A DNA stretch of 62,203 bases, filler included, from Ionaspis alba (taxonomy: Eukaryota): the NCBI GenBank assembly GCA_964255285.1. It is 5 parts of 5 records of this genome, joined end to end, with 100 filler letters (N's around TTAATTAATTAA, not from the genome) between each part and the next. Parts side by side here need not be neighbours in the genome. Positions count along the whole stretch, not along the records: positions 1 to 12,416 come from CAXUUL010000511.1; 4 more parts are not named here. The stretch is one strand, 5' to 3'. Under the pieces are notes generated by a model. That model was not told where the DNA came from, made no database searches, and was given only the letters and a program-made list of their open reading frames with translations. Below are positions 6,179 to 49,869 of the stretch, piece after piece (the first letter of the stretch is position 1; every line of letters starts with the position of its first letter). The translations under genes were made by a program, and so were the position numbers.

Positions 6179-7699
6179 TCAAACCAATACCTGTGCCTTG
6201 AAGATGATGAGGTTACTGTCGTAACTACCGCCAGATTCATCTCCCCTTCGGCTAACAACAGGGAAGATGACAGCCAGGATTGATCTTCCATGCAACGCCT
6301 CGCCTTTGCTGTCTTGTAGCACATCCTCCATTGATGCAGCATCGAAGGTTGTGCTTGCCGGCTTCTCTACTTTGAATACCGTCTTTTCTTTGATGAGGTC
6401 GAGTGCTAGTCCTGCTGCGGCCTTCACGACTTGATTGAGATGTTGCAGGCGTACCTCGGAATGATCCAGACCGGCTAGCCTGGCCGTGACAGCTTCAATT
6501 CTCTTGCTCACCTCTTTTACTGACGCTGATTGGTCTGCTTGGTAGCCTTTTGTCTTCTCCAGCAGCGCGACGGTCGAGGCGTTCCAGTCGTTTGCCTCCA
6601 CAACGGACGCTAGCCTCAATCAGTATCTATCGTTGCCAATCAAAGATTGTGGGCTTCTCTACCTTTTGCTTCAATCGCTTGCTTGAGCTCAGAGAACGCT
6701 GGACTACCAAGTAGCTCGCCGGTGTCGAATGCCTGCACGATCACGTCGGTTACCAAAGCCCTGAGCACCAAGTACTTGGTTCGAGGATTCTGAAGAAGCA
6801 TCACATAGTTCGGTTGGCTATCACGGAGTAAGGGCATGACATCTGGACCGGGTGAGATATCTGAACGAATGTTCTTGAAGTGCGTCACAACCCAGTCGTT
6901 GATGGCCTTGCAGAGTCTCGAGAAGCGTTCATGGACCTGTCGATCATCAAGGTTGGATACCCCGGTTCGACGGCCTTGCTGAAGAAGAAGTGCTTGAGTT
7001 TGTTGGAGTTGTGTGTTCTTCTCGTGAAGTTGCGTCTCCAATGAAGCAATGGTACTGTCAAATCCAGCACTAGGAGAATCATGCAACGATTTTGTCCCAT
7101 CTGTTGGGCTGTAACCTTCATGTCGTTTTCCTTTCTCTGATATATACGTTAGCTTCATGAGAGGGCCTAAGGACTTTGGATTGTTCACTGGAACGGCGCA
7201 ATATAAGAAACAGCAGAGCTGCAAGAGCAAGAGCAAAGAGAACTGCGAGAACTGAAATCCCAGCAACAAGCCCAGTGGGGCTCGCAGCCTTGGGCTCGGG
7301 CGTGGATGAGCTGGAAAGTGTCGTTGCTGTGTTCGTTACGCTCGTGTCATCTGTTGTTGACGTTGAGCTGGAGGCCGCAGAAGTTTCTGAAGACCCGAGT
7401 GTGGTCGTGCTGCTACTCAATCCGATGCTTGTACTTGAAGCGGTGTTTGTACTGGAAGCGGTACTTGTACTCAGGCTGCTGTTTGTGCTCGCAGCGGCGC
7501 TTACACCAGGAAGAGTCTTGGAGCCGACTATCGCAGCGGGAGTCACCTGCGTAGTAGCCAAACTGCTTGTGGCTGATGGTGATAGTGTTGCGATTGTCTT
7601 GTCATAGGTACTGGTAATGGTAACTGCTCCATTTATAATTATTGTACGTACGTGGCCTTCGACAAGACTGCCCACTGTCCAGGAATAAAAGGCCGACAT
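6179..7699 (-). CDS. Single-pass membrane protein (~471 aa): Ser/Thr-rich ectodomain, TM helix, cytoplasmic coiled coil, C-terminal GrpE/MIEAP-like domain
   Basis: Three ORFs are joined in frame by two phase-1 introns: 7137-7188 (GTGAAC..GCTAAC..CAG) and 6610-6662 (GTAGAG..CTGAT..TAG). TM is GLVAGISVLAVLFALALAALLFLIL, followed by basic RRSKKGKR. Coiled coil IASLETQLHEKNTQLQQTQALL. The protein ends FDAASMEDV...VIFPVVSRRG...IIFKAQVLV. Confidence 0.85.
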
Positions 7700-8402
7700 A
7701 TTCAGATTCCAGCTGCAATTAAATTTTTCTTGTTCACAAAACTCTCTTCGTATGCTAAAGGACTTAATCAGAGATTAGTGCTGCATACTTATCTCTGATG
7801 CATGAGAGCAGTTGAAAGGGGATGATCTAAGCAAAAGCATAGAAGGATGGGTACTGAAAAGGCGGTCACTTGCTCCTATGTGCGTTGCTTCAACATAATA
7901 CGTAGCACGAGGCACAGACTTCGGTCCCACAGGGGCCAGTCATGCCGCCTTGCACGGAGCATTGCAAAGCGCCAACCAGCAGTCACTGCAGGGTTTCAAT
8001 CCTTCTATAATAAGCGAGAAAAAAGTAAACACTGAGGCACGGTGCACAAACGGCGCAGTTCCTTAGCGTATATGAATTTAAACCTGGTCACTAATTCCTT
8101 TCCGTGCAGCAATATGGTGCCGCAGTCTTGCAGACCTTCTCCTTACTCGACGATCAATTCGAATTCCACCAATCGTTGTGAATTTCAAGAACGCGGCTGG
8201 GTTGGAGGGTACCGCCCATGCAGCCCAGCCTCCGCCAGCACATTCAGCTATGACTACTGAAAGTATGGCGTACCTTATAGATTATGGTGTGCCATAGACA
8301 ATATTGGGAAGTCCGGAACCCCGCATGTTGCTTCGGCTCTCAAGACTTGATTGTATTTATGGATATCGATGGTTTGAATTGGAGGTGTCCAAACATTGAG
8401 CA
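7700..8402. promoter_or_regulatory. Putative bidirectional promoter (~700 bp) between the membrane-protein gene and the Hsp70-like gene
   Basis: Divergent ATGs at 7699 (-) and 8403 (+) with no convincing ORF in between. Confidence 0.55.
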
Positions 8403-10437
8403 ATGACAGCCGTGCATGAAATCGTTGTGGGGGTTGATTTTGGCACCACGTACTCTGCAGTCGCTTGGGCTGAGACCTNNNNNNNNNNNNNNNNNNNNNN
8501 NNNNNNNNNNNNNNNNNNNNNNNNNNNNNNNNNNNNNNNNNNNNNNNNNNNNNNNNNNNNNNNNNNNNNNNNNNNNNNGTTGTGGGGGTTGATTTTGGCA
8601 CCACGTACTCTGCAGTCGCTTGGGCTGAGACCTCGAATCCTACCCAGATCGAGATTATCAAGAATTGGCCAACTTCTGGCCAGCTTGTCGGTGTTCAAAC
8701 ACCAAGTGAAATAGCTTACGCGGACGGTTCATCGAATACCTTTTCCTGGGGCTATAATATCAGTCCAAGAGCTCGAAAGGTGACTCTGCGAGAGTGATCG
8801 AAGTCACTGTGGAAAGGCTGAATGTTGATTGCAGGTCAAGTGGTTCAAGTTGGGATTGGAGACGGAAAATGAAGTACTGCCTCAATTCGCTGGTTTGACT
8901 GCCGTGGACGTCGTTCGAGACTACCTGTCAGCGCTCTACAAGCACATCATGACCACTTTGCATCGGAGGTTTGATCGGGGGGTTATGCAAATGACTACCA
9001 TTTCTTTCGTATTGAGCTGCCCTGCTGTTTGGTCCGATGCCGCCAAAAAGAAGACTGAAGACGCTGCTGTCCGTGCTGGTATGGGCAAGGGACACAATCT
9101 GGAACTGTTATCGGAACCGGAAAGTGCTGCTCTATACACTTTGAAAAGCCTCGAGAACGAACATTCTCGGATCAAGGTTCACGACCGTATTGTAGTTTGC
9201 GATGCTGGAGGGGGTACCGTGGACCTTATCTCATATGACATTCTCCAGACTCAGCCAAATCTACGAGTGGCAGAATGTGCTGCAGGAACGGGTGACCATG
9301 ATTTGCTTCTGTATGCTTGGTCTGCAGGCTAATCATAAATTAGGGGACTACTGTGGTTCTACATTCATCGATCGTGCATTCGAGAACCTTTTTGCAAAGC
9401 GTATGGGCGTACACTACGGCAAATTGTCTGTTGTCAATCGCCAGCAAGTGGTTAAGAACTTTGAGACCACCAAAATTGCCTTTCGAAACGATCCTGCTCA
9501 GGCAACATTTTATGTAAATGTCCCGACTATAGGGGATCTCGAGGACGCCAGAGTATATGGCGGCAACTTCGAAATTACTCGGGAGGAAATGAGGTCACTG
9601 TTTGATCCTATTATTGATCAAATTGTCAACCTCATCAAGGCCCAGGTCATGGCTGCTTCTGCTGGTCCTCAACAGGTGAATGCGATACTGTTGGTAGGCG
9701 GGTTCGGAGAGTCTGAATATCTGTTCCAGCGAATTGAGGAATGGGCATCTCGGTATGACATCCAGGTCTTACAACCAAGGGAAGCTTCTACTGCCATTGT
9801 TCGTGGCGCTGTGATGAAAGGACTGGAACCCAAGAGAGGGCCAACGAAGACAGAAATCTCCCGAAGGGCGAGGCGCTCCTACGGCGTCCCCACAAACCAG
9901 GCCTTCATCGAGGGAAAGCATTTGGACGTAGATTTGTGTTACCATAGCGAAACAGGACAAAAGCTTGCCAAAAACCAGATCAGTTGGTTCATTCACAAGG
10001 TAATTATTCATGCTGAAACAGTGGCTTTTTGGGTTCTGACATGGGTCGATGGCAGAACCAGATTATAACCGATGATCAAATCTTCAGTAAGTGGTCAATC
10101 ACAAAAGTCCGCGCATCAGGGGTTTGCTGATCGTGGAGAAGAACATGGCTTTTACCGCCACTTTAAAGAGTTGACCGTTTGGACGGACAACTTAGTATCG
10201 TCCACCCTGGACAACCCTCCTTCACGATGGGAGTCTTCGGTACAAAAGCATTGCACCATCACATCAGATCTCACTCATCTTAGCAAAAGGTCGAATTTCC
10301 AGCGAAAATGGCGAAAGCTTACCCGATACTATACAGCGAATTATGACCTGGTTCTGAGTATGAGGAACAACAAATTGACGATATCTTTAGAATACAAGGG
10401 CAAGGAGTATGGGGTGGCTGGGGTTCAGTTCGACTGA
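8403..10437 (+). CDS. Atypical Hsp70-family protein (HSPA12-like actin-fold ATPase, ~553 aa)
   Basis: Phosphate-1 VVGVDFGTTYS, then PAVWS, EPESAA, phosphate-2 VVCDAGGGTVD, CGSTFID, adenosine LLVGGFGESEYL and AIVRGA. Introns ~8780-8834, 9292-9343, 10000-10055 and 10087-10141. The apparent N-terminal duplication is a gap artefact. Confidence 0.93.
8479..8578. other. Scaffold gap with 55-bp duplicated flanks (assembly artefact)
   Basis: 8424-8478 is identical to 8579-8633. Confidence 0.95.
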
Positions 10438-10811: not shown

Positions 10812-12416
10812 ATGGACGAGACCATTGCTGTCAATGTATCTGCTCGATCGAGGTCTCAACAGCCTGGTACTAGAATTGGTCATGGTACGGTTGGATCCCA
10901 TTGATATATTGCACTCTAGAACGTATGCTAATAATCAAGATAGATTGGTTAGGAGACTATACTGAATTAATAACAAGACTGTCCTCGGACGGGTTTGGAG
11001 GAGATGTAGCATCAACTTTGTCCCTGCCTACGAGTCCACACAACAAGCGGGGAGAATCAAGTCCACTGCCACCCACAAACTTGGTCGATGACAATACACC
11101 AAAAGATCATGCACTAAAATATGCTGGAGCTGGCCGATTCTGGAAACCACCGGACACAGAAACTCCGCAAGCTGGCCGAACACGTGCATGGAGGCGATGG
11201 TCAGACAAATCTTTTGCAGTCAATAGCAGTCGTTTCCGACAGAACCTGGTCCCATTCATACCAGCAAGGAAAGAGCGGAAGAGCTTGAGCGATCATGGCT
11301 CTACTGTTTCATTTGATCGCTACCTCGAACAACCACTTGTAAATGACGGGAGATTCTCAGAATCGACAGAGGGAAGTCATGGACCAGCTCGTCCTGATAG
11401 TGGGAAAGTCGAAGTCGGTGCGTCCGATGCACAGTCATCTGGATCAGAGCCATTAAAATGGCTACCTGGCTCTCTTGCTTATCGGATCGCGATGGATGAA
11501 CGACGTATCAGAACGAAGGAACAACTCCAAAGACTCCAACTGGATGAAGAGAAATGTGCGTCCGAGCTCGAGACTGCTGAGCACCCACTTTCAGGACCTA
11601 CAGGATCGCCGATTCCCGCTCAGGTTGACGGCTCAGCAGGCAAGAACACACTTGATCCATCAGTATGGGCAGAAGAACCGCCTGTCGTTGCTTTTGAGAC
11701 TGTTAGTCCACTACTCGAAGGCCTTTCTGGCGACTCCACTCCCGACTCGGGAAGGCACCCCAAGCCAGCCACGATTGAAATCATCGATGTTGATCGCGAC
11801 TGTGAGACGAGACCAAATGACACGAAGGAAGAAACCCTGTACAATGAGTTCTCTCGTCAGGTACCCTCAAGTTTCGGAGTCCCCACCATTATAATTCCTG
11901 AACGCCCCTTATTTCAAGACATTGTCTTATCCGGCCAAGAATCATCCACTGAGCAGCAAGACCGCCCTGAAAAGACCGATTCAAGTCCGTGCCCTGAAGT
12001 ACCCGAACTATCACCAGATCCCGTATCTACAACCCCAAAGATCTTGAGCCCGGCAACACCCGCCGCACCCCAGGCTCAACTTGATGCCCAATCTGTTTCT
12101 CTCCCTGAATTACATTCCGATTCGACCAGCATTCCGATACAGGATTCCCTCTTCTCGGACCTCGACTTGCTTATCTCTGCACTTCCCGCTCGAGCAAACA
12201 CCCAGCACCCGCTCTACCACTCATCTCTCCCGCAATCAGATACTACAGGAACCGGCACCGCTATAGAGCTCAGCTCTACAAAGAGTGTTGCTTACCGTCC
12301 TCATCTACGGCGTAAACCTGTACCCAACACTCCACGTACCCTTCGCCAACACTCTGATTTGACCGTTTATAACACATTACCCTGCGAGCCGTATCCGCTT
12401 TTAGAAAGGGAGCAGA
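10812..12416 (+). CDS. Uncharacterised Pro/Ser/Thr-rich, largely disordered protein; 3' end truncated by the scaffold end
   Basis: ATG 10812 (MDETIAVNV...). A phase-1 intron 10885-10943 (GTACGG..GCTAAT..TAG) joins it to a >490-codon open frame with a short coiled coil (MDERRIRTKEQLQRLQLDEEK). Confidence 0.7.
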
Positions 12417-12516
12417 NNNNNNNNNNNNNNNNNNNNNNNNNNNNNNNNNNNNNNNNNNNNTTAATTAATTAANNNNNNNNNNNNNNNNNNNNNNNNNNNN
12501 NNNNNNNNNNNNNNNN
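12417..12516. other. Artificial contig linker N44-TTAATTAATTAA-N44
   Basis: 12-mer carrying stops in all six frames, embedded in N runs. It recurs four times in the window. Confidence 0.97.
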
Positions 12517-24878: not shown

Positions 24879-24978
24879 NNNNNNNNNNNNNNNNNNNNNN
24901 NNNNNNNNNNNNNNNNNNNNNNTTAATTAATTAANNNNNNNNNNNNNNNNNNNNNNNNNNNNNNNNNNNNNNNNNNNN
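24879..24978. other. Artificial contig linker N44-TTAATTAATTAA-N44
   Basis: Same linker as at 12417. Confidence 0.97.
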
Positions 24979-27801: not shown

Positions 27802-27901
27802 NNNNNNNNNNNNNNNNNNNNNNNNNNNNNNNNNNNNNNNNNNNNNNNNNNNNNNNNNNNNNNNNNNNNNNNNNNNNNNNNNNNNNNNNNNNNNNNNNNN
27901 N
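27802..27901. other. Scaffold gap (100 N)
   Basis: N run with a short TCCACAAC overlap on both sides. Confidence 0.95.
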
Positions 27902-37329: not shown

Positions 37330-37429
37330 NNNNNNNNNNNNNNNNNNNNNNNNNNNNNNNNNNNNNNNNNNNNTTAATTAATTAANNNNNNNNNNNNNNN
37401 NNNNNNNNNNNNNNNNNNNNNNNNNNNNN
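37330..37429. other. Artificial contig linker N44-TTAATTAATTAA-N44
   Basis: Same linker as at 12417. Confidence 0.97.
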
Positions 37430-49769: not shown

Positions 49770-49869
49770 NNNNNNNNNNNNNNNNNNNNNNNNNNNNNNN
49801 NNNNNNNNNNNNNTTAATTAATTAANNNNNNNNNNNNNNNNNNNNNNNNNNNNNNNNNNNNNNNNNNNN
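49770..49869. other. Artificial contig linker N44-TTAATTAATTAA-N44
   Basis: Same linker as at 12417. Confidence 0.97.

Follow-up and report, generated by a model that had tools for sequence, protein, structure and literature searches.

In the complexes of DnaK with its exchange factor GrpE (entries 1dkg and 4ani), the nucleotide cleft of the Hsp70 is opened by the beta tail of GrpE together with the helices preceding this tail. A membrane-bound variation on Hsp70 regulation is found in yeast Snl1, a BAG-domain Hsp70 exchange factor of the endoplasmic reticulum (ER)/nuclear membrane that is anchored by an N-terminal transmembrane (TM) helix, and in the Mid2/Wsc-type cell-wall stress sensors of fungi a single TM helix links a Ser/Thr-rich extracellular region, which is probably O-mannosylated, to a short cytosolic tail that binds Rom2. 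Vertebrate HSPA12A and HSPA12B are atypical Hsp70s in which the ATPase domain is conserved and the C-terminal part is unusual; in passages of a 2026 review the function of HspA12 is called unknown (PMC13580251), and no HSPA12 cofactor is named in these passages or in passages of a second 2026 review (PMC13149161). In this study, a 62-kb stretch of the Ionaspis alba genome (GenBank:GCA_964255285.1), hereafter the window, was analysed, in which a divergent gene pair (6179–10437, in the part derived from CAXUUL010000511.1) joins a gene for a putative membrane protein, gene A, to a gene for an HSPA12-like Hsp70, gene B. On balance we favour the view that the pair represents a conserved two-gene module, in which an HSPA12-like Hsp70 ATPase is paired with a GrpE-derived cofactor of its own.

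Sequence reading and all-frame translation revealed that both genes are intact, gene A on the minus strand and gene B on the plus strand. They lie head to head as the preliminary description of this DNA had reported, with start codons separated by 703 bp (7700–8402). The gene A product is 471 amino acids (aa) long and is encoded by three exons (7699–7189, 7136–6663 and 6609–6179) with GT..AG introns of 52 and 53 nt, and its homologues were collinear with this model over both splice junctions. The features of gene A and of the region that it shares with gene B are as follows.

7700–8402, no strand assigned: intergenic region common to genes A and B, a presumed bidirectional promoter.
7189–7699, minus strand: gene A exon 1, with the start codon, the Ser/Thr-rich N-terminal region (residues 1–143), the TM helix and a basic stop-transfer cluster.
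7199–7270, minus strand: gene A TM helix (residues 144–167), followed by RRSKKGKR; the matching segment of homologue P0004 lies within helix 156–191 of its AlphaFold2 model.
7137–7188, minus strand: gene A intron 1, 52 nt, GTGAAC..CTAAC..TATCAG.
6663–7136, minus strand: gene A exon 2, with the coiled coil (about 6976–7056) and the first half of the helical bundle (NDWV..THFK and RTKYLV.R motifs).
6610–6662, minus strand: gene A intron 2, 53 nt, GTAGAG..GGCTAG; homologue P0002 is collinear across the junction.
6179–6609, minus strand: gene A exon 3, with the last three helices and the beta tail; stop codon TGA at 6179–6181.
6182–6379, minus strand: GrpE-like beta tail (residues 406–471), ..TTFDAASMEDV..GRSI..VIFPVV.R.GD..IIFKAQVLV, six strands in the model.

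The architecture initially proposed for gene A, namely a Ser/Thr-rich N-terminus, a TM helix, a coiled coil and a beta-rich end, was present in this model, with the coiled coil at about residues 198–224 followed by a helical bundle and a six-strand beta tail. The plan was the same in nine full-length homologues: the Ser/Thr-rich N-terminus leads to a single TM helix with a basic cluster behind it, and the cytosolic region, about 290 residues long, is conserved. Relatives with this plan came from Xylographa (four species), Trapelia, Circinaria and Dactylellina haptotyla. AlphaFold2 supported the arrangement: in the model of the Xylographa soralifera homologue P0004, the N-terminus was disordered and the TM helix was followed by a helix of 38 residues, eight more helices and a six-strand tail, with a predicted local distance difference test score (pLDDT) of mostly 75–96 over the cytosolic part, and the window's own exon 3 gave three helices plus the six-strand tail at a mean pLDDT of 82. 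Apart from a Syntaxin match of exon 3 (E 0.014) and similar coiled-coil matches, which were dismissed as helical noise, no Pfam family was matched by the exon pieces of gene A at E ≤ 1 or by the full-length homologues P0004, P0005 and P0077 at E ≤ 0.1.

In a representative search, at least 19 of the 150 matches listed belonged to the family of gene A (hereafter the partner family), and the rest were dominated by heme oxygenases because the query, P0002, was a fused gene model. The deposited P0002 model (Circinaria calcarea, 780 aa) joins the partner protein to a heme oxygenase (PF01126), probably because annotation fused two separate genes. No relative was found when metagenomes were scanned with the partner alignment as query.

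Gene B extends on the plus strand from the ATG at 8403 to the stop codon at 10435–10437 in six exons including a 31-nt micro-exon, five exon intervals being listed below, and encodes a product of 553 or 554 aa, depending on the choice between two last acceptors.

8403–8779, plus strand: gene B exon 1, with the phosphate-1 motif DFGTT; contains the artefactual insertion 8424–8578.
8835–9291, plus strand: gene B exon 2, with the phosphate-2 motif DAGGGTVD.
9344–9999, plus strand: gene B exon 3, with the adenosine motif LVGGFGES; the nucleotide-binding domain ends here.
10056–10086, plus strand: gene B exon 4, the 31-nt micro-exon (NQIITDDQIF), fitted to orthologues P0165, P0166 and P0170.
10142–10437, plus strand: gene B exon 5 (acceptor alternatively 10139), with the non-canonical C-terminal domain; stop codon at 10435–10437.

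A run of 100 N at 8479–8578 adjoins a 55-nt duplicate inside exon 1. Since the contigs of two public runs joined 8423 directly to 8579, the insertion (8424–8578, the duplicate plus the 100 N) is an artefact of scaffolding, and gene B runs on without interruption; automatic gene calls at this position would be broken by it.

That gene B encodes an atypical Hsp70, as described earlier, agrees with several results. The phosphate and adenosine motifs were read directly in the sequence and are intact, the Pfam HSP70 match covered only the nucleotide-binding part (model positions 1–377 of 599) and was weak in each of three exons (1e-11 for the whole orthologue P0166), and sequence matches in the PDB were restricted to the ATPase domains of DnaK and Hsc70. 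Unlike DnaK, the product has no canonical substrate-binding domain, its C-terminal domain being non-canonical. Compared with P0165 of Candelina mexicana, 391 of 552 aligned residues were identical, and orthologues of 44–74% identity were found in many Lecanoromycetes and also in Candelariomycetes, Coniocybomycetes, Geoglossomycetes, Orbiliomycetes and Pyronema; relatives in other fungi shared only about 30% identity. The fungal gene is likened to vertebrate HSPA12A and HSPA12B by name, a name taken from the preliminary description and from what we presume to be the matching domain-database labels.

To what extent the two genes travel together was seen in a metagenome search with the Hsp70 alignment, which yielded 80 intron-bearing eukaryotic loci, 74 of them distinct at 97% identity. 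A hidden Markov model (HMM) of the gene A family, from which the coiled coil was left out and which was taken through three iterations, detected gene A relatives in 21 of the 80 loci. In the 62-kb window this HMM matched nothing besides gene A at E ≤ 1, and it matched 0 of 4193 bacterial open reading frames. The positions of the relatives in distinct loci were as follows.

Upstream side, loci in which 2.4 kb or more precede the Hsp70-like gene (n = 30): gene A relative upstream on the opposite strand in 16, upstream on the same strand in 1, none upstream in 13.
Downstream side, loci with enough downstream DNA (n = 27): gene A relative downstream in 2, both 4.2–4.4 kb away.

In two related loci (L165:9435–10106 and L210:7513–8355), the partner was found on the downstream side, 4.2–4.4 kb from the Hsp70-like gene and encoded on the other strand. 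The genes flanking the pair varied between the 17 loci whose flanks were scanned, and the presence of HET, Fungal_trans and Nha1_C domains among them indicates that several of these loci are fungal. It was also noticed that the X. soralifera homologues of genes A and B were on contigs of identical size (973921), a hint of linkage. A TM segment was found in only one (L176) of the 16 other divergent partners and in none of the remaining 15, which suggests that the wider partner family is mostly soluble and that the membrane form is a minority.

A second, more distant set of pairs was found in bacteria. Searching with the fungal Hsp70 alignment returned 219 candidate stretches, 133 of which were confirmed by tblastn, and the best 80, with 22–34% identity, were analysed; the relatedness of the bacterial Hsp70-like genes was seen in tblastn at 24–29% identity, with E values down to 1e-31. 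In 73 of the 80 loci a partner gene was located directly downstream on the same strand as the Hsp70-like gene. The bacterial partners formed two families, an actinobacterial and a cyanobacterial-type one, which were mutually homologous (hhalign P 4e-16). The bacterial module resembles that of the window in its related Hsp70-like gene, its adjacent partner and, as described below, a homologous partner tail, and differs in that its partner is co-directional and downstream, whereas in the window and the 16 eukaryotic loci the partner is upstream on the opposite strand; moreover, a TM helix and a putative ectodomain are features of the partner in the window.

The conserved pairing anticipated for this locus was therefore seen in both fungal/eukaryotic and bacterial loci, and because the divergent arrangement recurred in 16 of 30 loci with differing flanks and a partner was present in 73 of 80 bacterial loci, the pairing of genes A and B is more than chance. 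If the two genes were only chance neighbours sharing a promoter region, the GrpE likeness of gene A being an artefact of helices or composition, the 13 testable loci with no partner upstream would be readily accommodated, but neither the repeated divergent arrangement despite different flanks nor the partner directly behind the bacterial Hsp70-like genes would be expected. Pairwise distances of Hsp70s and partners were also correlated (r 0.68 over 183 of 190 pairs, a value reached by 0 of 2000 Mantel permutations).

The relation of the tail to GrpE was approached by profile-profile comparison using three alignments: 1) A7, comprising 31 eukaryotic partners with the window's exon 3 as first row, 2) A6, comprising bacterial partners of the cyanobacterial type, and 3) a set of 45 GrpE sequences. 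With hhalign, A7 matched A6 at Prob 92.2 and E 5.9e-7 over 107 columns corresponding to exon 3 residues 24–142, i.e. up to the last residue and excluding the coiled coil, and a shallower eukaryotic profile matched the bacterial partner at Prob 81.1 and E 1.2e-5. A6 in turn matched the GrpE set at Prob 92.9 and E 3.8e-7. No bacterial partner was matched in a single-HMM search with the fungal family, the link being visible by profile-profile comparison only. In the controls, reversed templates gave P values of 0.2–0.6, and 60 column shuffles reached at most 15.9 against the bacterial partner and 20.9 against GrpE, compared with real scores of 36.8–51 and 23.7, respectively. The C-terminal part of gene A is probably a very distant relative of GrpE, the link being a chain of profiles via the bacterial partner family.

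Structural comparison pointed in the same direction, though weakly. When the exon 3 model was searched with Foldseek against 350,542 PDB chains, ranks 1–5 were all GrpE, and nine GrpE rows occurred among the 50 matches listed, covering six of the seven distinct GrpE sequences in the PDB. VIA alignment gave Z 4.9, a root-mean-square deviation (rmsd) of 6.8 Å and 89 aligned residues for 9bls_B, and Z 4.4, rmsd 5.2 Å and 71 aligned residues for 1dkg_B, and among the VIA rows only GrpE spanned the beta tail. The order of motifs in the GrpE tail, F-D-x3-(H/M)-E, then a V..(Y/F)-P or G-Y strand and a final (R/K)-A-x-V-x-V strand, matched that of the partner. Even the direct alignment of A7 with GrpE had the expected register, with F-D-x3-M-E-D placed on F-D-P-x2-H-E-A and K-A-Q-V-L-V on R-P-A-x-V-x-V. 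Taken together, the profiles and the models make it quite likely that the partner tail descends from a GrpE-type domain.

Several observations weigh against a GrpE-derived cofactor encoded next to its ATPase. As to the tail, the direct comparison of A7 with GrpE was not significant (Prob 2.4, E 0.019, 55 columns), earlier direct profile comparisons having given P 0.011–0.018, compared with 0.23–0.59 for their reversed controls. Pfam GrpE (PF01025) was not matched by the three gene A exon pieces (E ≤ 1), by P0004, P0005 and P0077 or by 12 metagenome relatives (E ≤ 0.1), and a profile search of the PDB returned no GrpE at E ≤ 10. The GrpE matches in Foldseek were weak (E 0.08–1.1, rmsd 9.7–13 Å), and the VIA Z scores of 4.4–4.9 were within the range of unrelated helical matches. 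With the full-length homologue model, the 50 Foldseek matches listed were generic helical ones with no GrpE among them, and GrpE reached Z 5.6–5.8 in VIA but with an rmsd of 17–18 Å. The helical part of the gene A type, with eight helices, is also far beyond the bundle of GrpE. As to the gene pair, 13 of the 30 testable eukaryotic loci had no partner upstream, the distance correlation is weak support since it is expected for any co-inherited genes, and the 703-bp shared region contained no array of heat-shock elements and no excess of stress-response element (STRE) motifs. As to the membrane topology, no signal peptide was present in the window's gene A model, so that the N-terminus-out orientation rests wholly on the positive-inside rule; homologue P0077 begins with a signal-like segment.

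The GrpE-like domain of the preliminary description is thus upheld as a probable distant relationship, via the bacterial partner family and the five top Foldseek ranks, and not as direct membership, for which the Pfam and E 0.019 results were negative. The non-significant direct comparison and the structural Z scores within noise are also what chance neighbours with a spurious likeness to GrpE would give. However, the profile controls scored far lower than the real comparisons, and the first five Foldseek ranks were taken by GrpE although the PDB holds only seven distinct GrpE sequences. With the pairing data included, the chance-neighbour explanation is strongly disfavoured and very improbable.

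By analogy with DnaK-GrpE, the following mechanism can be proposed for the favoured Hsp70/cofactor module. Gene A would be held in the membrane by its one TM helix, with the mucin-like Ser/Thr-rich N-terminus outside according to the positive-inside rule and about 300 residues in the cytosol, comprising a probably dimerising coiled coil, the helical bundle and the GrpE-type beta tail. Like GrpE on DnaK, this cytosolic part might dock on the neighbouring Hsp70 at its nucleotide-binding domain, and once docked it could set the ADP/ATP exchange of the Hsp70 such that the ATPase works at that membrane, while the 703-bp shared region would ensure co-expression of the pair. Such co-regulation, like the topology, the location, the physical binding and the exchange activity, is what we infer from the locus and its relatives.

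Likening genes A and B to the DnaK-GrpE pair, or to mitochondrial Hsp70-Mge1/GrpEL1, is supported by the gene of an Hsp70-type ATPase lying beside that of a partner in which a long helix, predicted to dimerise, precedes a helical bundle and a beta domain at the C-terminus, and by GrpE being the best Foldseek match of the partner's tail model. The likeness stays an analogy, as the partner itself fails the tests of GrpE membership, having no significant direct sequence match and no PF01025 match, and it differs from GrpE further in its far larger helical part and its predicted membrane anchor. The locus also differs from the DnaK system in that genes A and B are divergent rather than in an operon, and in that no J-domain was found among the 87 open frames of at least 70 aa in window positions 1–22000.

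It is also conceivable, at a clearly lower probability than that of a cofactor, that the GrpE-like tail is a docking handle only and that the partner is an adaptor, scaffold or client instead of an exchange factor; it would then recruit the ATPase to the membrane, or to coiled-coil assemblies in the case of the soluble relatives, and the ATPase would remodel the partner or clients bound to it. The adjacency and homology data support this possibility as much as they do an exchange factor. The tail has diverged so far that Pfam GrpE is not matched, and the helical region, much larger than that of GrpE, together with the long and variable N-terminal regions (with a TM segment, disorder or long coiled coils) suggests that the partner does more than exchange nucleotides. 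On the other hand, conservation in the partner family is highest in the tail and its preceding helices, and it is precisely these elements that open the cleft in DnaK-GrpE complexes.

Among membrane-tethered regulators, Snl1 is comparable in outline, since its exchange-factor domain lies in the cytosol and, being tethered, directs Hsp70 activity to a membrane, as proposed here for gene A. It differs in its BAG fold, in acting on the canonical Ssa/Ssb Hsp70s and in having no mucin-like ectodomain, and to our knowledge the Snl1 gene is not paired with that of its Hsp70. The Mid2/Wsc sensors share with gene A the Ser/Thr-rich region, the single TM helix and a cytosolic tail, which in gene A is predicted to be a folded domain of 300 residues, and no Mid2/Wsc Pfam family was matched by exon 1 (E ≤ 1) or by P0004, P0005 and P0077 (E ≤ 0.1).

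The preliminary description had further interpreted gene A as a cell-surface sensor that controls its Hsp70 in a stress or non-self response. Judging from its Ser/Thr-rich region and TM helix, which are the sole basis for this and belong to a minority form of the family, gene A is possibly such a sensor. The broader idea that the pair is a stress, non-self or conflict module, in which the exposed partner senses the state of the wall or membrane or an invader and switches the ATPase onto an effector, appears rather improbable. Besides the ectodomain and the single TM helix, it draws on extra genes behind the pair in some bacterial loci, one of them presumably patatin-like, and on a HET-domain gene beside the partner at one eukaryotic locus. 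It is opposed by the restriction of the membrane anchor to L176 and the subfamily of the window, no TM segment being present in the remaining 15 divergent partners, by PADLOC defence models that had no meaningful match to either protein, and by neighbours that are housekeeping genes. Congruence of the two gene trees and a patchy distribution had been suggested as a check; the distances do correlate, as expected upon co-inheritance, but the Hsp70 orthologues, at 44–74% identity across several early-diverging classes of Pezizomycotina, look vertically inherited and not patchy.

At the eukaryotic locus mentioned (L164:1423–2232), the gene adjoining the partner carries a HET (heterokaryon incompatibility) domain, which was the sole hint of non-self recognition among the 17 flank-scanned loci. 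In bacteria, a third family (cluster 6, about 350–650 aa) was located near the Hsp70-like gene in 19 loci, mainly of Streptomyces (e.g. L024:7853–11007). A gene with the motif GGGAKGAYELG..GTSIGA, which we take to be patatin-like, was likewise present in 19 bacterial loci, following the cluster 6 gene in the loci read, and may be an effector of a larger module.

A possible extension to animals came from the bacterial partners, 4 of 22 of which (alignment A6, e.g. L003:8450–9010) matched the C-terminal end of Pfam MIEAP (PF16026, mitochondria-eating protein/SPATA18) with a best E of 1.7e-6; in contrast, the fungal/eukaryotic partners tested had no MIEAP match at E ≤ 0.1. The animal Mieap family may thus share the GrpE-like tail. 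Our literature search found no paper that links Mieap with HSPA12. We regard it as a tentative and doubtful proposal that HSPA12-type Hsp70s from bacteria to fungi, and possibly animals, work with an ancient GrpE-derived cofactor family, of which the window's cofactor would be a mucin-like single-pass form and, as the weak MIEAP link would then suggest, Mieap/SPATA18 the animal counterpart.

No paper describing such an HSPA12 partner in fungi or bacteria was found in the literature search. If this tentative proposal holds, the cofactor family would have escaped annotation because only its tail is recognisable, and in the window an extracellular or wall-facing segment would be wired to the nucleotide cycle of a cytosolic Hsp70-type ATPase, which would constitute an undescribed membrane-coupled chaperone or signalling switch. 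After yeast Snl1, the membrane-anchored form would be the second known solution to tethering a regulator of Hsp70 at a membrane. A conserved, genomically linked partner provides a concrete hypothesis for the HSPA12 branch, and with the partner family, which has no Pfam entry, HSPA12-like genes can be sorted into functional modules. The occurrence of the pair in both bacteria and fungi also bears on the diversification of Hsp70 systems.

The rest of the window looks like an ordinary fungal chromosome and contained genes for a class II aminoacyl-tRNA synthetase, an oxidoreductase, an Nma111-type protease, transporters, RRM and PUF proteins and a Zn-cluster factor. Just downstream of gene B, an open frame (10925–12472) encodes a Ser/Pro-rich product of 515 aa without a Pfam match, the end of which is interrupted by an N block. 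Blocks of 44 N, 12 bases and 44 N were located at 12417–12516, 24879–24978, 37330–37429 and 49770–49869, and their even spacing of about 12.45 kb points to masking or processing and not to a biological cause. Other gaps of 100 N were noticed at 27802, 54361 and 56853.

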